Shown here piece by piece: positions 2,944 to 59,117 of a stretch of DNA of 64,000 nucleotides. The position numbers and the translations under genes were made by a program. The notes under the pieces were generated by a model that ran no database searches, was not told the origin of the DNA, and saw only the letters and a list, made by a program, of their open reading frames with translations. This DNA is from Candidatus Omnitrophota bacterium (GTDB lineage Bacteria > Omnitrophota > Gorgyraeia > Zapsychrales > Zapsychraceae): NCBI GenBank assembly GCA_016931055.1, contig JAFGFL010000062.1, forward strand, positions 17,451 to 81,450, given 5' to 3'. Every line of letters begins with the position of its first letter. Position 1 is the stretch's first letter.

Positions 2944-3636
2944 TCAATCGTTCTTTTCTTTTTCTTCCAAAGCCCTGACCCGCCTGATCAGGTCTTTCAG
3001 GTGCTGCATGATAGGATCGGAAACATGGACATGGTCCATCATCAGGTCAATCCTCTTCCCGTCCTGCTTGGTAATGTGCCCGGGCACGCCGACGACCGTT
3101 GAATTCGGAGGAACGTTCTCCAAGACAACGGCATTCGCCCCGATATAGCTGTTATCGCCAACCGTGATGTTCCCCAACACCTTTGCCCCGGCCCCAATAA
3201 CGACATTGTTCCCGATTGTCGGATGGCGCTTTCCCGTTTCTTTTCCGGTCCCGCCTAACGTCACCCCTTGAAAAAGAGTCACATTGTCCCCGACGATCGC
3301 CGTCTCGCCGATCACGACACCCATCCCGTGATCGATAAAAAACCCTTTCCCGATTAAAGCGCCGGGATGGATTTCAATACCTGTTATAAGCCGCGCCAAC
3401 TGGGAAACAAACCTCGGGAAGAACGGGACCTTTATTTTCCATAAGGCATGGGCTATCTTATAGGCAATAAAAGCATGGAGCCCCGAATAAAGCAGGATGA
3501 TCTGCAGATACCCTTTCGCCGCAGGATCCTTTTCCTGTGTTTCTTTGATCGATTGCTGAAAAAAGATTGCAACCAAAAGGACATAGGCAACAATGATCAG
3601 CAATAAAACAGATACGGTTATGCTCAATCCCATCAT
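2944..3636 (-). CDS. cysE: serine O-acetyltransferase with a hydrophobic N-terminal extension
   Basis: DPAAKGY...GIEIHPGA...FIDHGMGVVIGETA and hexapeptide repeats match short-form CysE. The first ~25 aa (MMGLSITVSVLLLIIVAYVLLVAIFF) look like a TM helix. Confidence 0.85.
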   Translation of the reverse strand: MMGLSITVSVLLLIIVAYVLLVAIFFQQSIKETQEKDPAAKGYLQIILLYSGLHAFIAYKIAHALWKIKVPFFPRFVSQLARLITGIEIHPGALIGKGFFIDHGMGVVIGETAIVGDNVTLFQGVTLGGTGKETGKRHPTIGNNVVIGAGAKVLGNITVGDNSYIGANAVVLENVPPNSTVVGVPGHITKQDGKRIDLMMDHVHVSDPIMQHLKDLIRRVRALEEKEKND

Positions 3637-3640
3637 TCAC

Positions 3641-3717
3641 TCCCGTCATTTTTCCTCATTTCCATTAGGAGGAAATGATGAGACTCGTACCCATCCCTTA
3701 ATCGGATGGTACGGCCT
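3641..3717 (-). promoter_or_regulatory. conserved two-hairpin leader element, copy a (fills the ispF-cysE spacer)
   Basis: The sense sequence AGGCCGTACC...GGGTACGAGTCTCATCATTTCC...GGAAATGAGGAAAAATGACGGGA aligns end to end with the copies at 37488-37567 and 59039-59117. Its terminal GGGAG lies 3 nt before the cysE ATG. Confidence 0.6.
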
Positions 3718-29560: not shown

Positions 29561-29622
29561 GTTTTTCTCTCCTTAATACAACTTAGCGCATTCAACCTAA
29601 AAGAACAAACACATCTCGACGG

Positions 29623-31045: not shown

Positions 31046-31993
31046 TTATGCCGTTACATCAAACAAGCAACTAATCGACTCTCCGCTGTGGATCCTTTGA
31101 ATCGCTTCTGCAAGTAACGATGCAACACTGACACATTTTATTTTTGAAATTTGTTTTGCCTTGCTTAACGGGATACTGTCCGTGATGACCAGTTCCTTTA
31201 ACGCCTTGCACTCCTTGATCCTTTCGATGGCATTTCCAGAAAGAATGCCGTGCGTGACCGCGGCATACACATCCAGGACGCCCTTCTTCTTTAAGGCCGC
31301 GACCGCTTCAATCAACGACCCGGCCGTCGCGCAGATGTCATCGACAAGAACCGTGTTCTTTCCTTTAACGTTTCCCAAGATATGCATAACACTTGTCGAT
31401 TCAGGGCTATTGCGCCTTTTATCGACAATGGCGAGGCCCGCGTCCAACCGCTTCGCATAAGCCCGCGCCATTTTGATCCCCCCGACATCGGGAGAAACAA
31501 CAACCAGATTCTTAAGTTTTTTATCATCGAAATATTCACAGAGGGTATTGATCCCATATAAGTGATCAACAGGGATGTCAAAGAATCCCTGGATCTGGCT
31601 GGCGTGCAGGTCCATGGTCAAAACACGGGTTGCCCCGGCTGCCACGATTAAATTCGCGACTAGCTTCGCGGTAATAGGGACCCTCGGCCGGTCTTTCCGG
31701 TCCTGGCGGGCATAGCCGTAATAAGGCAAAACAGCTGTAATACGGTCAGCCGATGCCCTGCGGGCCGCATCGGTGAGGATCAAAAGCTCCATCAAATTAT
31801 CATTCGTCGGAGGGCACGTGGATTGGATGATAAAAACATCTTTTCCCCGGATATTCTGTTTGATCTCAACCCGGGTCTCTCCTTCGCTGAACCTTGAGAC
31901 CAGAACATCCGTCAACGAAACATTCAACTTATCACAAATGCCTTTGGCCAGCTCTGGATTGGAATTCCCTGTAAAAATAGATAGCCCGTTCAT
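31046..31993 (-). CDS. prs: ribose-phosphate pyrophosphokinase
   Basis: 315 aa with YYGYARQDRK and DLHA motifs. Confidence 0.95.
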   Translation of the reverse strand: MNGLSIFTGNSNPELAKGICDKLNVSLTDVLVSRFSEGETRVEIKQNIRGKDVFIIQSTCPPTNDNLMELLILTDAARRASADRITAVLPYYGYARQDRKDRPRVPITAKLVANLIVAAGATRVLTMDLHASQIQGFFDIPVDHLYGINTLCEYFDDKKLKNLVVVSPDVGGIKMARAYAKRLDAGLAIVDKRRNSPESTSVMHILGNVKGKNTVLVDDICATAGSLIEAVAALKKKGVLDVYAAVTHGILSGNAIERIKECKALKELVITDSIPLSKAKQISKIKCVSVASLLAEAIQRIHSGESISCLFDVTA

Positions 31994-33252
31994 TGTCGTT
32001 CCTTCTTTGAAATGATTTTTGCCGGTACCCCGACAGCCACGCTGCCATCGGGAATGGTTTTTCCTTTTAAAACAACGCTTCCCGCTCCTATAACCGCTTT
32101 TTTGCCGATCTTGGCCGGCGCTACCAAAATGGATCCGGATCCGATGAAAGCGCCGTCAGCGATCTTTGTCGGATGTTTTTGCCGGCCATCAAAATTAGCC
32201 GTGACCATTCCTGCCCCGATGTTCACATTCTCACCGACCGAAGAGTCGCCGACATAACTAAAATGTTTCATGAATGTGCCGCTGCCGACTTTCGACCTTG
32301 ACACCTCCGTAAAATTCCCGATCTCCACTTTATCGTCGATTTTCGTGCCTGAGCGGATCCTGGCAAAAGGGCCGATCTTACAATGGCTGCCGATACGGAC
32401 ATCGGCCTCGATAAAAGAAAACGGGTGAATCACCGTATCATATCCGATCCTTGCGTTCGCATGAACATATGTTGTGCTTGGATCCACAATGGTGACGCCT
32501 TCCAACATGAAATACTTTAAAATCTTTCTGCGCATGATGGCTTCAGCCGCCGCCAGATCTTCACGGGTGTTGACCCCCAAACCTTCCGCAGGGTCTTCCG
32601 TCTCGACCGTCGACATCTTAAGCCCCTTTTCGAAAAAGTATTCGATGATATCGGTCAAATAAAATTCTTTCTTCTTCTTGTTAATCTTGATCTCTTTGAG
32701 CGCTTTAAACAATTCCTTGCCTTGGCAGCAATAAACGCCGACATTGATCTCAGCGATATCCCGCTCAAAACCCGCGGCATCTTTGTCCTCGCGAATGGCG
32801 ACAACATTGCCGTTCGTGCCGCGGATGACCCTCCCATAGCCTTTAGGGTTGTGGACGACGGCCGTCAAGAATGTGCATACCGTTTTTGCCTTTTTATGCT
32901 TCTGAACGATTTTTTTGACCGTCGTTTTGTCCAGCAAAGGCGTGTCAGCGCACAGAATGAGGATATCGCCATGGTAGCTTCGAAAATATTTCTCCGCGCG
33001 TTTAACGGCATCGGCCGTTCCAAGCATTTTAGGCTGCTCAACCGTGACAATCTTGTCGCCTAAAATTTTCTTAACCATTCCGCTTTTATGCCCGAGAACA
33101 ACATATGTTCTTAAAGAACCCAGGGCCAGGGCGATATCCAAGACATACTGAATCATCGGCTTGCCGCAAAGAGCATGCAAGACTTTAGGGATATCGGACT
33201 TCATCCGCGTCCCTTTCCCCGCTGCCAAGATGATTGTTCTTAGTTCTTTCAT
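31990..33252 (-). CDS. glmU: bifunctional GlcNAc-1-P uridyltransferase / GlcN-1-P acetyltransferase
   Basis: I set the start at ATG 33252 (MKELRTIILAAGKGTRMKS). The C-terminus is a hexapeptide domain. The extra ~105 N-terminal codons of the 526-aa track ORF read through a tRNA gene. Confidence 0.9.
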   Translation of the reverse strand: MKELRTIILAAGKGTRMKSDIPKVLHALCGKPMIQYVLDIALALGSLRTYVVLGHKSGMVKKILGDKIVTVEQPKMLGTADAVKRAEKYFRSYHGDILILCADTPLLDKTTVKKIVQKHKKAKTVCTFLTAVVHNPKGYGRVIRGTNGNVVAIREDKDAAGFERDIAEINVGVYCCQGKELFKALKEIKINKKKKEFYLTDIIEYFFEKGLKMSTVETEDPAEGLGVNTREDLAAAEAIMRRKILKYFMLEGVTIVDPSTTYVHANARIGYDTVIHPFSFIEADVRIGSHCKIGPFARIRSGTKIDDKVEIGNFTEVSRSKVGSGTFMKHFSYVGDSSVGENVNIGAGMVTANFDGRQKHPTKIADGAFIGSGSILVAPAKIGKKAVIGAGSVVLKGKTIPDGSVAVGVPAKIISKKERQ

Positions 33253-33431
33253 GATTTTAAATGGGTTAACCTCAGAACTGCCTCGGCCTTCGCTGCTGCA
33301 GCGTCTAAGTTTAAAACCACCGTGAACCACTCCCCTGAACCTGAGCAAAGCGAATGGTTCAGGGTCGGGTTCACGGCCATGTACCCGAGCGTAGCCCTCA
33401 ACCGACGGTTCAAGGCGCAGCGAGTGGTACA
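33253..33431 (-). other. structured 179-nt spacer between tRNA-Gln and glmU (three hairpins; possible tRNA terminator plus glmU leader)
   Basis: Sense strand has three helices. The first is TGTACC...GGTACA. The second is CCGTGAACC-CGA-CCCTGAACC[14 nt]GGTTCAGGG-GAGT-GGTTCACGG followed by TGGTTTTAAA. The third is a 9-bp helix GGTTTTAAA/TTTAAAATC that abuts the glmU ATG. Confidence 0.4.
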
Positions 33432-33506
33432 TGGCTGCCCAGCCAGGGCTCGAACCTGGAAAAGCAGATCCAAATTCTGCTGTGTTTCCAATTACACCAC
33501 CGGGCA
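33432..33506 (-). tRNA. tRNA-Gln (anticodon UUG)
   Basis: A manual cloverleaf fits: acceptor TGCCCGG/CTGGGCA (U1-A72), G73, encoded CCA, D arm GTGT-AATTGGAA-ACAC, anticodon arm GCAGA-ATTTGGA-TCTGC, and T arm CCAGG-TTCGAGC-CCTGG. Length is 75 nt. Confidence 0.85.
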
Positions 33507-33620
33507 ATCCTTTATTCCAATAAACAGGCAAGCACCATGTCCCGGTTATGAATATTACTAATGAACACATGGTGCTCGCACTGTAGGAAAGCGCAACATT
33601 TCCTAAAGCCTCAAGGCCCC

Positions 33621-37209: not shown

Positions 37210-37279
37210 CCTTTTCTTAAGTGTATATTATTCCATACTTTGACCATCAAATTCTTTATAGACTCGTTTAAGATAAAAT

Positions 37280-37308
37280 AAACAGCGTATTATAGCCTCG
37301 CTCATCAC
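37280..37308 (-). promoter_or_regulatory. near-consensus sigma70 promoter for hisG
   Basis: The minus strand reads TTTACA-17 nt-TATAAT, ~70 nt upstream of hisG. Confidence 0.6.
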
Positions 37309-37407
37309 CGATGTAAAGATAATTATAATGTATACTATAGTATAATGTTTAATTGCTCTTTTACGCAAGAAATTGACTAAAAAAGCAACAAACTTTACTG
37401 AAATTCC

Positions 37408-37436
37408 TTGTCAAAGGTATCGTTGAAGGCTATAAT
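37408..37436 (+). promoter_or_regulatory. near-consensus sigma70 promoter for the ppiD-like gene
   Basis: The plus strand reads TTGTCA-17 nt-TATAAT. This places leader copy b inside the 5' UTR. Confidence 0.65.
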
Positions 37437-37487
37437 GAACCGATTCGTCTTTCCCATTCTCATCAATATATGAATTCCGATTGTATA

Positions 37488-37567
37488 AGGCCGCACCCAT
37501 TCCTTTATCCGGTGGGGTGCGAGCCTCGTCATTTTACCTTTATGGTAAATGGCAAAAATGACGGGAG
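37488..37567 (+). promoter_or_regulatory. conserved two-hairpin leader element, copy b (5' UTR of the ppiD-like gene)
   Basis: AGGCCGCACCC...GGGGTGCGAGCCTCGTCATTTTACC...GGTAAATGGCAAAAATGACGGGAG. The GGGAG lies 5 nt before ATG 37573. Confidence 0.65.
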
Positions 37568-37572
37568 TTAAA

Positions 37573-39207
37573 ATGCTTAAAATTTTGCGTAAAAAGGGTA
37601 TTGCCAAGAAAATCCTATGGGTTGTCGCCGTTGTCATTATCATTTCTTTTGGATTTTTCGGGACAGCGTACCTTTTAACCGGAAAGGGAGTTGTAGGATA
37701 CGCGGGCAAGATCTTCGGTAAAAAAGTCTCTTTGGAGGATTTTGATAACGTTTACCAAGAGACCCGCATGCAAGCCATCCGCCAATATGGCGCTGACCTG
37801 GACAAAGTGGCCCATCTTCTGAATCTCGAAGCCCAAACGTGGGACCGGATGATCCTTCTTCATGAGGCAAAAAAGAGAAGGATCCATATTTCCAATGAGC
37901 AAGTCGTCCAGGCCATAAGACAAGACCCGTCCTTCCAGAGAAACGGCCGTTTTGACGTCCTTATCTATAACGCCATTCTCCGGACCCTGCGCATCCGGGC
38001 AAGGGATTATGAAGAGACAATGCGCGATAATCTGAAAATCTCCGAGCTCTACAGGCAAGCGACTTCCTCTGTGACAATCTCGGAGGAAGAGGTTTTTGAA
38101 GAATACAAGAAACGCAACGAAAAAATCCAGATCAGTTATGTCTTGGTGTCCCCAGAGTCATTCAAGGATGAGATTACCGCGAACGCCGACCAAATTAAAC
38201 AATATTACGAAGATCATAAGGCCGAATTCCGAATGCCGCCAACCATTGATGTCCGCTATCTAACCTTCGCCTTTCCCGAAGAAATCAAAAAAAATGAAAA
38301 GCTGGTAACTGAAACAGCCGTTGAAGCTGGACAAGAAAATAACGACGAATCAGGAGAGGAAACATCCGCTGAGGAAGGGCAAAAAGAAAACGGCAATGCG
38401 GGAACAGAATCGCCTGCCGATGAGAACGAACAAGAGATCGCCCGCGAAAAAGAAATCGATGTGATCCGGGAAAAGGCAGATGCTGTTTTTCAAGAGCTTT
38501 TAATCAATCCGAATATGGAAGAAGTCGCCGGCAAAAATAACCTTACCGTTGAAAACACCGGATTTTTCAGCATGGAACAACCAAACCTCACGGCAGGCTG
38601 GTCCTACGACATCCTTAATGACCTTTTCCAAATGGATGTGAATGAAATCAGCGAGCCTTATGAAACGGCGGACGGCATCACCATTCTGCAAATCAAAGAA
38701 AATCGAGAATCGTATACGCCTGAATTCCAGGAGGCTAAAGAAAAAGCCCAGGAAGCCGTCATCGAGAAAGAGGCCGGAAAAATCGCCGAACAAAAAGCGG
38801 CTGAAAATCTCAAAGCGATCAAAGAAGAATTAAATAAATCAAAACTGCAGGATTTTCCAAAAGCGGCCAAGGATTTGGGGCTTAAAATTGACCAGACGCC
38901 CACGTTTAACCGCGGCCAGTATCTGCCTCAAATCGGGATCTCCAAAGAATTTCAAGAAGCCGCTTTCGCGCTCACGGAAGATAACAAGGTCAGTGAGGTC
39001 GTCGAAACGGCCAAAGGATACTGCATCCTTCATCTTGACGACTATGTCCCCATAGAGAACAGCGATTACGAAAAAGCCAAAGACGCCTTGGCCCAAGAGC
39101 TTTCGGATGAGAAACGCAATGCCGCCTTTGCGGATTTTGTGTCGCAGTTGAGGATCAAAGCCAATCTGATTGATCATCTCCCTGAATTACGGGCCCGGTT
39201 CCAATAA
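37573..39207 (+). CDS. membrane-anchored periplasmic chaperone / peptidyl-prolyl isomerase (PpiD/SurA family)
   Basis: MLKILRKKGIAKKILWVVAVVIIISFGFFG is a TM anchor, followed by a SurA-N-like domain and a parvulin-like region. I chose this start for SD spacing. The track start at 37549 lies inside the leader element. Confidence 0.75.
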   Translation: MLKILRKKGIAKKILWVVAVVIIISFGFFGTAYLLTGKGVVGYAGKIFGKKVSLEDFDNVYQETRMQAIRQYGADLDKVAHLLNLEAQTWDRMILLHEAKKRRIHISNEQVVQAIRQDPSFQRNGRFDVLIYNAILRTLRIRARDYEETMRDNLKISELYRQATSSVTISEEEVFEEYKKRNEKIQISYVLVSPESFKDEITANADQIKQYYEDHKAEFRMPPTIDVRYLTFAFPEEIKKNEKLVTETAVEAGQENNDESGEETSAEEGQKENGNAGTESPADENEQEIAREKEIDVIREKADAVFQELLINPNMEEVAGKNNLTVENTGFFSMEQPNLTAGWSYDILNDLFQMDVNEISEPYETADGITILQIKENRESYTPEFQEAKEKAQEAVIEKEAGKIAEQKAAENLKAIKEELNKSKLQDFPKAAKDLGLKIDQTPTFNRGQYLPQIGISKEFQEAAFALTEDNKVSEVVETAKGYCILHLDDYVPIENSDYEKAKDALAQELSDEKRNAAFADFVSQLRIKANLIDHLPELRARFQ

Positions 39208-39690
39208 GACTTCCTTATAATCAGGAAGAAGGGCATGTTCCTCGGAAAGGACCCTTCCCTCCCTGCTGAGAAGGAAAAATGTCGGGAAACCGATGATGTT
39301 ATATTTCTCCGAGACAATTCCGTCCTTGTCCAAAAAAGAATCATAGGAAATGTTTTCGGAGTCAACATAAGCCTTCACCTTCCTGGAGTCCTCACCGACA
39401 TCAACCAGAATGACCTTGATCCCTTGTCCTTCAATATCTGCCCGTTGGCCATTCAGCGCCGCCAGTTGGCTCCGGCAGTGGGGACACCATGTTGTCCAAA
39501 AGAACAGAATGGCCGGCTGGCCGGCCCGGACAGAGTTCATGGACTCACTGCGGCCGCTCAATGTCAACAAAGTAAAATCCGGGGCAAGTTGACCTAAAAG
39601 CGGATTGGGGCCTCTTAAAAACGGGCCGCATGACCTAAGAAGGATAAAGACCACAAAAACCGCGAGAAGCGCTTTGATGATTAATTTCAT
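39187..39690 (-). CDS. TlpA/ResA-family thiol-disulfide oxidoreductase
   Basis: Signal/anchor sequence and a thioredoxin motif FWTTWCPHC. Confidence 0.85.
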   Translation of the reverse strand: MKLIIKALLAVFVVFILLRSCGPFLRGPNPLLGQLAPDFTLLTLSGRSESMNSVRAGQPAILFFWTTWCPHCRSQLAALNGQRADIEGQGIKVILVDVGEDSRKVKAYVDSENISYDSFLDKDGIVSEKYNIIGFPTFFLLSREGRVLSEEHALLPDYKEVLLEPGP

Positions 39691-43642: not shown

Positions 43643-43693
43643 GCCAACCGCTCCTTTTTTACTGCCATCAGAATAGTAGAAAAAAAGATTGTC

Positions 43694-43789
43694 TTAACGC
43701 GAATCGTCGCGAATCTAACACTGATTTACGCGAATATCAGTACTGTTATTTGCGACCATTTGCCTTTGATTTGCGTAAATTCGCGTTAA
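43694..43789. repeat. 96-bp CGCGAAT/ATTCGCG palindromic repeat, copy A
   Basis: Terminal inverted repeats TTAACGCGAAT...ATTCGCGTTAA. It matches the copy at 49747-49843 at ~75 of 97 positions (manual alignment) in the same orientation. Confidence 0.75.
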
Positions 43790-43806
43790 AAATATCTCTT
43801 CAAATT

Positions 43807-49707: not shown

Positions 49708-49746
49708 ATCGTTGACAGAAACCCTTAAAACAAAAGAAAAATTATT

Positions 49747-49843
49747 TTAGCGCTAATAATCGCAAATCCAACGCGAATTTACGCAAATATCAGTACCGAT
49801 TATTCGCGACCATCAGCGTGTAATTCGCGACTATTCGCGTTAA
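49747..49843. repeat. 97-bp CGCGAAT/ATTCGCG palindromic repeat, copy B
   Basis: TTAGCGCTAAT...ATTTACGCAAATATCAGTAC...ATTCGCGTTAA, which aligns with 43694-43789. Confidence 0.75.
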
Positions 49844-49871
49844 AACGAAAGAATAAATCAATCCTGCTCAA

Positions 49872-50963: not shown

Positions 50964-51389
50964 TTAACTTAGGTGTTGTTCATTCCTGATTTCCGAGGGA
51001 GACTTGCGCTGCGGAATCAGGCCGGCCATCAGCTTGATGGCTATGAGAATTCGATCAACCGAGCACGGCTTGACAAGATAGTGCTCAGCTTCCAAGGAAA
51101 GTCCTTTTTTTACATCATCCATTTCCCCCCTCGCGGAAACAATGATCACCGGCTGCCATTTCTCTTCCGGCGGATGCTCCCGCAATTCCTGCAAAACCTC
51201 AAAGCCGTTCTTTTTGGGCATGTTCAGGTCAAGGACAATGATATCCGGCGATTCATTCCGGATCTTCTGCCACGCTTCCTCACCGTCAGCCGCCGAAATA
51301 ACGGCATAGCCCCGTTCGGCGATCTTCTTGGTCATGATCTTTAGGATCTCGGGCTCATCATCAGCAACAAGGATTTTTAAATTCTGCAT
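50964..51389 (-). CDS. stand-alone response regulator receiver protein
   Basis: KILVADDEP...DIIVLDLNMP...K receiver motifs. The start is at MQNLKIL, with GGAG 6 nt upstream. Confidence 0.8.
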   Translation of the reverse strand: MQNLKILVADDEPEILKIMTKKIAERGYAVISAADGEEAWQKIRNESPDIIVLDLNMPKKNGFEVLQELREHPPEEKWQPVIIVSARGEMDDVKKGLSLEAEHYLVKPCSVDRILIAIKLMAGLIPQRKSPSEIRNEQHLS

Positions 51390-51425
51390 TATTTCTCCAT
51401 TAAATGACGATCGTAACGTGTCCGT

Positions 51426-51470
51426 CCTCAACTTAACTTGCTGGCGGATCCGCCTTCAAGTTAAGTTGAG
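51426..51470. repeat. 15-bp perfect palindromic hairpin
   Basis: CCTCAACTTAACTTG-[CTGGCGGATCCGCCTT]-CAAGTTAAGTTGAGG. The loop itself contains GGCGGATCCGCC. Confidence 0.75.
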
Positions 51471-51492
51471 GGCGAGACCTCGCCAAATTTAT

Positions 51493-51972
51493 CTAAATTT
51501 GGCGGGCCGAAGAATAATCTTTAAGGTCATATTTAATCTCGGTAGACGGCATCGCATGTTTATCGATCGTAACCCCGGCCTTGGCAAAGAATCCCGTGGC
51601 CAACGTGTCGTGATATTCCGAAAAGACAACGACCCGCTTGATCCCCGCTGTAATGAGCGCCTTCGCGCAGGTCGTGCACGGCATGTTCGTGACATAAGCC
51701 GTCGCCCCATCGATCGCATGCCCGCGCTTGGCCGCCTGGACCAGCGCGTTCATCTCGGCGTGAACCGTGCGGACGCAATGATTGTCGACCACCAAGCATT
51801 CATCATCTTCGCAATGGACATCGCCGGGGATCGACCCGTTATAACCGGTCGAGACAACATTCTTATCTTTGACCAGGACGCAGCCGCAGTGCATACGCGG
51901 ACACGTCGCGCGCTCAGAGGCCAGCATGGCCAGCTTCAGGAAATATTCATCCCAATCGGGTCTTTTCTGCAT
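51493..51972 (-). CDS. deoxycytidylate (dCMP) deaminase
   Basis: Zinc motifs HAEMNA and PCTTCAKAL. Confidence 0.9.
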   Translation of the reverse strand: MQKRPDWDEYFLKLAMLASERATCPRMHCGCVLVKDKNVVSTGYNGSIPGDVHCEDDECLVVDNHCVRTVHAEMNALVQAAKRGHAIDGATAYVTNMPCTTCAKALITAGIKRVVVFSEYHDTLATGFFAKAGVTIDKHAMPSTEIKYDLKDYSSARQI

Positions 51973-58770: not shown

Positions 58771-59031
58771 TTATTCCTGCGATATGATCTTGTTTGTCCG
58801 TTCCTGCACTTCTCTGTCATATTTCGCGTCCAGATGGTCTCTTTGTTCGATATATTCAGCGTACGTGATCTCTTTATGCAGATATTGACGCTCCAGGCCA
58901 TCCCGGTTTTCTTTGTAGTTGGCAAAATGCGGGTCCTGAATCAATGTCTCAGGATTCTCCAGATAATTCTGCCCGTAAGTACACCCGAACAATACCAAGG
59001 CGCAGGACAATAAAAGACTTTTTTTGATCAT
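58771..59031 (-). CDS. small lipoprotein (hypothetical)
   Basis: 86 aa with signal plus lipobox LFGC. Confidence 0.6.
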   Translation of the reverse strand: MIKKSLLLSCALVLFGCTYGQNYLENPETLIQDPHFANYKENRDGLERQYLHKEITYAEYIEQRDHLDAKYDREVQERTNKIISQE

Positions 59032-59038
59032 CGCTTTT

Positions 59039-59117
59039 TCCCGTCATTTTTCCGCATTTCCTTTAGAAGGAAAGGACGAGGCTCGCACCCTATCACATAC
59101 TAGGCAGGGTACGGCCT
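59039..59117 (-). promoter_or_regulatory. conserved two-hairpin leader element, copy c
   Basis: Sense sequence AGGCCGTACCCT...AGGGTGCGAGCCTCGTCCTTTCC...GGAAATGCGGAAAAATGACGGGA, ending 7 nt before ATG 59031. Confidence 0.6.

Follow-up and report, generated by a model that had tools for sequence, protein, structure and literature searches.

The 64,000-nucleotide stretch analyzed here (the window) comes from a Candidatus Omnitrophota bacterium (assembly GCA_016931055.1, contig JAFGFL010000062.1, positions 17,451 to 81,450 of the forward strand) and carries three segments of about 80 nt, each of which folds into two hairpins and lies immediately ahead of a start codon. Copy a sits in the gene order ispD-ispF-copy a-serine acetyltransferase-like gene (cysE), copy b lies between a promoter and a ppiD-like gene, with hisG divergent on the other side, and copy c separates a gene for a GT2 glycosyltransferase from one for an 86-amino-acid lipoprotein, which is followed by a SpoU methylase gene. 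An earlier note on this DNA described the three segments and proposed that they are a novel cis-regulatory RNA, a translational switch or thermometer of the genes that follow. The sequences, their alignment and a covariance model all bear out the description, which was correct for the two hairpins (1 and 2), the bulged A of the first, the invariant tail and the spacing between the Shine-Dalgarno sequence (SD) and the start codon. The proposed function was not supported. Here we argue that the segments are probably copies of a family of small, non-autonomous insertion elements of the Omnitrophota that target the SD and regenerate it.

The three copies (coordinates in Table 1) align end to end with a mean column identity of 78 to 83%, and they are 76 to 83% identical to one another, as they are to a copy found in the closest relative (L162; L numbers designate loci and contigs outside the window). 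The covariance model, which was built from family members, gives them 57.9 to 72.2 bits (E values of 3e-17 to 6e-22) and, run with its filters off, finds no fourth genuine copy in the 64-kb window. As RNA, each copy folds into a strong 5' hairpin with the bulged A, followed by a second structure. All three carry the invariant tail AAAAATGACGGGA and end in GGGA(G/A), and their start codons lie 4 to 7 nt after the GGGA. The first base of the AGG of copy a is the A of the ispF stop codon TGA.

Loci around the orthologues of the flanking genes were taken from relatives and scanned with the covariance model, again with filters off. At ppiD, the site is filled in the window and empty at all four relatives' loci (L162 to L165; protein identity, 69 to 50%). 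At ispF-cysE, the four junctions of the relatives (L166 to L169; identity, 85 to 75%) are likewise empty and measure 2 to 13 nt. Copy c is also present, unchanged, in a contig of the same strain (L174), and three of the four relatives' spacers between the glycosyltransferase and lipoprotein genes (L170 to L172; 32 to 33 nt) are empty; an extension past the window end on the same-strain contig holds no further copy and no transposase. At rpsF, it is the closest relative, L162, that carries a copy, between pth and rpsF, whereas the sequence of the window reads as a 62-nt spacer without one; L163 and L164 were judged empty there from gene gaps of 9 to 14 nt and the lack of a model match. Since the copies are absent at four, four, and three orthologous loci (copies b, a, and c, respectively), they are not conserved leaders of these genes.

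Four pairs of filled and empty sites were compared base by base, and the boundaries were identical each time: AAGG[CCG...GACGGG]AG. The filled ppiD site reads tatAAGG[CCG...GACGGG]AGTTAAAATG, and after excision of copy b it becomes tatAAGG^AGTTAAAATG, which is collinear with the empty site gaATGG^AGTAATTATG of L162. At rpsF, the filled site tgttAAGG[CCG...GACGGG]AGAAAAAAATG corresponds to the empty site tattAAGG^AGAGAAAAACATG. Excision of copy a leaves TGAGG^AGTGAATGATGGGA, of the same length as the empty junction TGAGGGGGAAATGATGGGA of L166, and excision of copy c leaves the sequence of the empty spacers of L170 to L172, GATTAAAAAAAGG^AAAAAGCGATGATC, apart from one A. Because the boundaries match in this way, the segment of about 75 nt is an insertion inside a preexisting SD. 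The insertion is precise, oriented, and specific for the SD core, and the SD is regenerated. These comparisons show that copies have been gained lineage by lineage, all three window copies being absent from the relatives' orthologous sites, and by parsimony all four filled/empty differences are best read as gains. The promoter TTGTCA-17-TATAAT that the earlier note had placed upstream of copy b is indeed there, and it also occurs at the empty ppiD locus of L162; it is therefore external to the element and older than the insertion, and copy b is transcribed from a promoter native to the gene.

The fourth spacer between the glycosyltransferase and lipoprotein genes (L173, 10733-10837) contains a different insertion of about 72 nt with AACGCGAAGAGCGCGAAAAA, located upstream of an intact TTAAAAAAGGAAAAAATGATG. 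This insertion may be related to a second repeat family, and the spacer may be a hot spot for insertions. The second family is unrelated to the element and is represented in the window by two intergenic copies of about 115 nt (43680-43795 and 49733-49846) that are about 78% identical. Their terminal inverted repeats are TTAACGCGAAT...ATTCGCGTTAA, and CGCGAAT is repeated internally; the pattern CGCGAAT-N-CGCGAAT gives 2 matches versus 0.02 expected. This family resembles a classical MITE (miniature inverted-repeat transposable element).

The same target is seen throughout the family. In silico excision of 48 copies restores (A)AAGG^AG(G/A), the canonical SD, and the AAGG^AG target is found in 48 of 48. 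Also at the positions that the search patterns left free, the target is 83 to 85% conserved (A at -4 in 40 of the 48 copies and G at +2 in 41). GG flanks the inserted segment on both sides in every copy, which is compatible with a 2-bp duplication or with none, and that is why the boundary is ambiguous by up to 2 nt. The GGG at the 3' end of the element and the AG of the host together form a GGGAG ribosome-binding site (RBS) at the original distance from the start codon. One copy (L005) abuts a tRNA-Ser gene, as identified with ARAGORN and Rfam: the tRNA (GGAGAGG...) takes its first two G's from the terminal GG of the element, at whose left edge an orphan AAGG remains. Here the element entered a GGAG that is no RBS, which argues that the target is the DNA sequence and not translation. 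Inverted termini of 9 to 10 nt, CCGTCATTT...AAATGACGG, occur in a subset of copies only (for example, L001, L014, L026, L037, L038, and L134), where the linker CGTCATTT is an internal direct copy. Most copies begin with CCGCCCC, CCGTCCC, or CCGYACC and have no match to the 3' end, so the family has no general terminal inverted repeats (TIRs).

At least 48 copies are known to us, from about 20 Omnitrophota metagenome-assembled genomes (MAGs) and from metagenome contigs. The element is noncoding and about 73 to 105 nt long. Public genomes, one per species, were scanned with a pattern in which AGGCCG, CGAG, and the tail were the only fixed parts; this returned 41 loci, about 33 of them genuine and almost all of these in Omnitrophota MAGs (at most 5 per genome), together with 8 chance matches in unrelated taxa. 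A metagenome scan that was anchored on the base of hairpin 1 and on hairpin 2, and left linker and tail free, gave at least about 25 genuine matches including duplicates of the same locus, of which at least about 15 were nonredundant and new; most of its matches were chance ones from GC-rich contigs. The covariance model cleanly separates the genuine copies (34 bits or more) from the rest. Copies are distributed patchily, with three in the 64-kb window versus one in about 218 kb of syntenic sequence of relatives. One copy (L034, 5155-5243, SBBT01000126.1) lies in a MAG labeled Candidatus Troglogloeales (Nitrospirota), and several (L008, L014 to L016, L023, L026, L035, and L039) lie in MAGs labeled "uncultured Planctomycetales." Such labels reflect either misbinning or mislabeling of Omnitrophota contigs or a spread of the element beyond the phylum.

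All members share one plan, which runs A-AGG-CCG, a variable hairpin top, CGA-GCCU, the linker CGUC, hairpin 2, and RGG-AAAAAUGACGGG-AG. Hairpin 2 is of the type AUUUCC...GGAAAU or, in L018, L034, and L039, CCGCC...GGCGG. In an alignment of 44 copies, 92.3% of the cells of the two hairpins are paired, compared to 39 to 47% when the partners are slid, and 14 of the 22 pairs have changed on both sides (Table 1 gives each hairpin separately); the CCCGCC/GGCGGG variants of the three loci just named are among the changes in hairpin 2. The two hairpins are therefore real conserved pairings, and from one lineage to another the pairings are kept but the sequences differ. The earlier note had further argued that the stem differences are wobble or compensatory changes only in the mRNA sense. 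This is weakly borne out: folding energies of the sense and antisense strands are equal (mean difference, 0.05 kcal/mol; P = 0.93; 47 copies), and the only strand-specific signals are a 5' arm that is rich in C (CG 123 versus GC 18) and, in hairpin 1, an excess of G.U over A.C (23 versus 9 on the sense strand). The motif was said not to belong to a described RNA family, and no family of Rfam 15 matches it, either at the gathering score over the whole window, at an E value of up to 10 for copy b, or at an E value of up to 1 for six other members of different subtypes. The best score, for the three window copies and these six, was a 12.8-bit chance match to mir-541.

Several loci give an impression of how copies change once in place. 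At orthologous sufS sites, a 28-nt hairpin module, CCCGCCTTGCCGAGCAAGGCGAGGCAGG, is present in the linker of one copy (L040, 4753-4860) and absent from the other (L013, 7794-7873); the identical module recurs in L008, L023, and L047, and it ends in AGGCAGG, a mimic of the AGGCCG at the 5' end of the element. Two metagenome contigs with near-identical flanks represent the same locus (L086, 11970-12047, and L159, 321-416) and differ in hairpin 1, where a nested perfect palindrome, CCTGCCTGATGCAGGCAGG, distinguishes them; this suggests that the inside of the hairpin loop turns over rapidly. Differences of both kinds are the modular turnover that is typical of dispersed repeats. A decayed copy between pnp and an FtsK-like gene (L048, 565-636) has hairpins 1 and 2 but no tail or SD, and it shows that copies can erode in place.

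All copies have a single orientation relative to the downstream gene, and in 35 of 36 copies a start codon that opens a real open reading frame (ORF) follows the GGGA by 4 to 10 nt (mode, 7), the exception being the copy next to tRNA-Ser. The copies do not form clusters, have no GTAG motif, and always lie 5' of a gene. In 21 of the 36, the element begins between -2 and +15 nt from the stop codon of a co-oriented upstream ORF and therefore fills the whole intercistronic gap. That it often extends from the upstream stop codon to the SD is because short operon spacers consist of little more than these two. The genes downstream have no common theme: they encode response regulators, SufS, thioredoxin, subunit K of the V-ATPase, ribosomal protein S6 (rpsF), lipoproteins, PpiD, and CysE. 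A hydrophobic N terminus, to which the earlier note drew attention, is a property of the products of the three window genes and does not extend to the family, as the response regulators, SufS, thioredoxin, RpsF, and V-ATPase subunit K illustrate. The list of downstream genes rules out a regulon of membrane or exported proteins.

The single orientation and the fixed distance to the start codon were among the properties that the earlier note would have had count against a REP- or MITE-type repeat, for which it expected copies in both orientations, at random distances from start codons, and without compensatory changes. This expectation was too narrow. The element shows none of these three features of a simple repeat and nevertheless is a dispersed insertion element, because the site that it enters has an asymmetry of its own and a constant spacing to start codons. 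If this reading is confirmed, a mobile repeat is not excluded by one orientation, a fixed distance, and compensatory changes.

Taken together, we regard it as probable that the three segments belong to a family of small, non-autonomous insertion elements of the Omnitrophota that are directed to the SD and regenerate it. Copies are found inserted inside the SD core AAGG^AG in one orientation relative to the asymmetric target. It may be mobilized by a transposase or recombinase that acts in trans and reads the single-strand hairpins, the GG crossover dinucleotide, or both, and candidates for such an enzyme are a Y1 transposase of the IS200/IS605 type or a serine transposase of the IS607 type. 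The conserved GCCU at the foot of hairpin 1 pairs with the target-derived AGG(C), and this pairing may be how the SD is recognized. Because the SD is rebuilt and its predicted accessibility does not change, such insertions may be tolerable to the host, and any effect on the mRNA, through a 5' or intercistronic hairpin, stability, or coupling, would be secondary and is unproven. A bolder version of this proposal is that the element represents a new class of target-specific miniature mobile elements that recognize the SD itself, perhaps by GCCU-AGG pairing as between guide and target in IS200/IS605. By inserting in the sense orientation, elements of this class would guarantee their own transcription and near-neutrality and would seed structured RNA modules, in 5' or intercistronic positions, throughout the phylum, some of which were perhaps co-opted to control mRNA or translation. 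We put this forward only tentatively and consider it more doubtful than the simpler proposal.

Several points weigh against an insertion element. The 1.2 Mb examined yielded neither a transposase nor a longer autonomous element that has these ends, and none is evident in the window. A longer element would be bounded by GG-CCG...hairpin 1...CGAGCCTCGTC at the left and AAAAATGACG-GG at the right; a search of the 1.2 Mb for unpaired left and right halves bracketing a transposase gave only the decayed copy in L048, a weak partial copy in L008 (around position 902), and chance matches. The 76 to 83% identity of the window copies gives no sign of very recent activity. The assignment of gain rather than loss rests on parsimony, and the repeated GG blurs the exact insertion boundary and any 2-bp duplication. 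The compensatory maintenance of the hairpins and the excess of G.U could reflect selection on RNA and not a DNA intermediate. IS607 itself is of little target specificity, unlike the element. Finally, copies are retained at orthologous sites of different genomes at sufS (L013 and L040) and atpK (L016, L036, and L041), and this retention could indicate a function.

This last point, together with the strong compensatory upkeep of both hairpins, also speaks for an element of mobile origin that is now a functional mRNA module, its hairpins being useful once inserted. It could serve as a barrier to 3' exonucleases for the upstream cistron, as a protective 5' stem-loop after processing, in the uncoupling of translation between cistrons, or as an A-rich standby site combined with a strong SD. 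The position of the copies, always inside transcripts either between cistrons or downstream of a native promoter, fits such a role, as do the strand-specific signals in hairpin 1, and effects on mRNA fate have been described for the dispersed repeats REP, ERIC, Correia, and BOX (PMC3184786, PMC3049150). However, these features would also be expected if mobilization needs a single-strand DNA hairpin, the downstream genes share no theme, the element is dispensable at every orthologous site of a relative that we examined, and no effect on SD accessibility is predicted. We consider such a role as an mRNA module unlikely.

The regulatory leader originally proposed would toggle between hairpin 2, with the SD free, and a helix between linker and tail, with the SD occluded, and would in this way serve a regulon of exported or membrane proteins as a switch or thermometer. 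The complementarity on which it was based is real. The tail pairs with the linker and the 5' arm of hairpin 2 as the earlier note stated, and RNAfold prefers that helix in copy b. In nearly all copies the linker CUCGUCAUUU is complementary to the tail AAAUGACGGG (94.8% of cells paired), RNAfold and RNAalifold both use part of this helix, a double change from U-A to C-G occurs in L053, L082, and L119 before different genes, and AAAUGA is present in both the tail and the 3' arm of hairpin 2, so that the two compete for the same 5' arm. Nevertheless, a double change is seen at only one of the eight pairs of this helix, compared with six of eight in hairpin 2. Its other changes leave mismatches (copies a and c, L001, L061, L104, and L134), except for one wobble in L015, and the CCCGCC-type copies (L018, L034, and L039) have lost half of the helix without compensation but have kept hairpin 2. 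When hairpin 1 is formed, the helix pairs only with the first G of GGGAG. In partition function calculations for 46 copies, the predicted probability that the 6-nt SD is unpaired was 0.50 with the element and 0.47 after its excision (P = 0.20), and predicted accessibility hardly varies with temperature (0.43 at 15°C versus 0.53 at 45°C). A tRNA gene follows one copy, the downstream proteins are mostly not membrane proteins, and a linker and tail that were both bound by one transposase or recombinase would be expected to covary just as much. The element is not conserved at orthologous genes, and these empty sites largely refute a gene-specific leader or switch. Given also the insertion into a preexisting SD, whose predicted accessibility does not change, we judge a switch or thermometer of these genes to be very improbable.

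We give hardly any credence to a portable expression signal like REP2/CREN of Neisseria, in which the element would bring its own promoter and RBS and place the downstream genes under a common transcriptional regulator. Two internal inverted repeats and an RBS directly upstream of ORFs, without general TIRs, are the layout of REP2 and of the Borrelia inverted repeat (PMC3184786), and AT-rich, -10-like hexamers lie just upstream of some copies. However, over half of the copies begin where the preceding gene has its stop codon and are thus internal to operons. A scan of the region around copy b (37210-37600) gave no sigma-70-like match within the element, and the only promoter-like match near this copy is the external one that predates the element. 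In addition, the palindrome of hairpin 2 covaries and does not preserve a fixed operator sequence. Other candidates were discarded more directly: on inspection, an integron attC site is contradicted by the lack of an R'/R'' core, a k-turn or MS2-like hairpin is contradicted by the presence of only a single bulged A, and an intrinsic terminator, alone or with a promoter, is contradicted by the absence of a U-run after hairpin 1, while a conserved upstream ORF through the AUG of the tail does not fit the variable spacing and frame between that AUG and the start codon.

Table 1. Positions in the window of the three copies, of the parts of copy b, and of related sites
Feature	Position	Strand	Remarks
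Copy a, filling the ispF-cysE intercistronic gap	3641..3717	-	71.4 bits; inserted segment 3714-3642; cysE start at 3636 or 3633
Empty target site in the pth-rpsF spacer, intact SD ...tattAAGG^AGAGAAAAACATG	29561..29622	-	Relative L162 carries a copy here
Native sigma-70-like ppiD promoter TTGTCA-17-TATAAT, outside the element	37408..37436	+	11 of 12 matches
Copy b, whole element as defined in the earlier note (AGG...GGGAG)	37488..37567	+	5' untranslated region of the ppiD-like gene; 57.9 bits
Copy b, hairpin 1, AGGC-CGCACCC...GGGUGCG-(bulged A)-GCCU	37488..37526	+	8 of 14 pairs changed on both sides (44 copies)
Copy b, inserted segment [CCG...GACGGG], 75 nt	37491..37565	+	Boundary uncertain by at most 2 nt
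Copy b, hairpin 2, CAUUUUACC...GGUAAAUG	37530..37551	+	6 of 8 pairs changed on both sides
Copy b, tail AAAAAUGACGGGAG	37554..37567	+	3' GGG plus host AG form the rebuilt SD; start codon at 37573
Copy c, between the GT2 glycosyltransferase gene and the 86-amino-acid lipoprotein gene (start at 59031)	59039..59117	-	72.2 bits; inserted segment 59114-59040

Two weaker matches in the window were rejected as further copies. One (39229-39290, plus strand, 18.5 bits) falls within a real AhpC/TSA gene of the opposite strand, and none of the ATGs after it opens an ORF. The other, a double hairpin at 51446-51514 (12 to 18 bits), is an unrelated palindrome. In the same region, positions 51423-51474 form an inverted repeat with 26-nt arms that are 88% complementary and have no spacer between them; it lies between the minus-strand ORFs 50964-51431 and 51493-51972 and gives weak matches to the covariance model on both strands. 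The 3' ends of the ppiD-like gene downstream of copy b and of the AhpC/TSA gene that converges on it share 21 nt (39187-39207), and the same overlap is found in L162. Elsewhere in the window, a tRNA gene (33435-33506, minus strand, 53.5 bits) falls within the 5' part of the mechanically called ORF 31990-33570, and the real protein start must therefore be located further downstream.

If confirmed, an insertion element directed to the SD would be a clear case of a bacterial mobile element that uses the RBS as a safe haven, where insertion is harmless because the element carries a replacement SD and where it remains transcribed and oriented. This would add a new strategy to the transposon targets already known, such as terminators, REPs, tRNA genes, and attTn7. 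It would also explain a class of conserved, structured 5' untranslated region motifs that comparative RNA discovery pipelines would otherwise flag as riboswitch candidates. For the Omnitrophota, an uncultivated phylum, the element would offer a strain-level insertion marker and a natural experiment on the effect that about 75 nt of structured RNA directly upstream of the SD has on operon expression.

Among described systems, the element can be placed with the dispersed intergenic repeats and is MITE-like, and its choice of target is unusual and, as far as we found, undescribed. We found no description of a repeat that targets and restores the SD, or of such an Omnitrophota RNA motif, in the searchable literature, which is not proof of absence. 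With MITEs and palindrome-associated transposable elements (PATEs) it shares its small size, noncoding nature, and multiple copies, and also the differences in presence among relatives, subfamilies that are specific to lineages, ends that form hairpins, and a short, fixed target. It differs in that most copies have no TIR and in that the target is the SD core, which the element restores. As in PATEs derived from IS200/IS605, which insert 3' of a fixed 4- to 5-nt target and have no TIRs or target site duplications (TSDs), both ends have hairpins: hairpin 1 marks the left end, and hairpin 2 or the linker/tail hairpin lies close to the right one. General TIRs are lacking, AAGG or a similar sequence always forms the left flank, and the orientation is constant.

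The Y1 transposases of IS200/IS605 act on single-strand hairpins in subterminal positions. They insert in one orientation, 3' of a fixed tetranucleotide, and recognize the target by its pairing with a guide at the foot of the hairpin. The two hairpins of the element, its fixed AAGG left flank, its strand asymmetry, and the pairing of the GCCU foot with the target AGG resemble this scheme. Elements of the IS607 family have no TIRs or TSDs, and their circular intermediate recombines at a GG overlap dinucleotide with a target dinucleotide that matches it (PMC4058570, PMC6188088). The GG at both junctions of our element, without general TIRs and with a target duplication of at most 2 bp, is similar. 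However, IS607 elements are 1.6 to 2.5 kb long, encode tnpA and tnpB, and have minimal target specificity, whereas the Omnitrophota element is confined to AAGG^AG.

REP sequences and the bacterial interspersed mosaic elements (BIMEs) that they form, ERIC sequences, and mycobacterial interspersed repetitive units (MIRUs) are also transcribed palindromic or oriented repeats inside operons, and REPs were first described as intercistronic. REPs, however, occur in both orientations, are usually 3' of genes, depend on REP-associated tyrosine transposases (RAYTs), and carry the GTAG motif, whereas the element has a single orientation and always lies 5'; nor does it have the 20- to 40-nt palindrome with a GTAG head, or the clusters, of BIMEs. 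MIRUs were reportedly described by Supply et al. in 1997 as lying between cistrons in one orientation and abutting the flanking stop and start codons. They are tandem minisatellites with small ORFs, unlike the element. We know of no REP, BIME, ERIC, or MIRU sequence that targets or rebuilds an SD. With RNA thermometers (ROSE and fourU) and translational riboswitches, the element shares a structured 5' leader and the potential of part of the ribosome-binding region to pair with an upstream strand. Orthologous genes keep their thermometers and riboswitches, in which the SD or AUG is covered by the pairing, whereas the element is absent from orthologues and pairs with the first G only.

The closest described kind is that of REP2/CREN of Neisseria and the inverted repeat of Borrelia plasmids (Parkhill 2000, Morelle 2003, and Dunn 1994, as reviewed in PMC3184786). 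These are likewise dispersed intergenic sequences of about 100 nt without TIRs, with two stem-loops and an RBS, in one orientation upstream of ORFs. REP2 contains a promoter and an ATG, whereas the Omnitrophota element has neither, its ATG being 4 to 10 nt outside. The likeness is one of layout, and no relationship in sequence is expected between these different phyla. In the Omnitrophota element, the SD is half host and half element, the boundaries have been demonstrated by filled and empty sites, and most copies are intercistronic.

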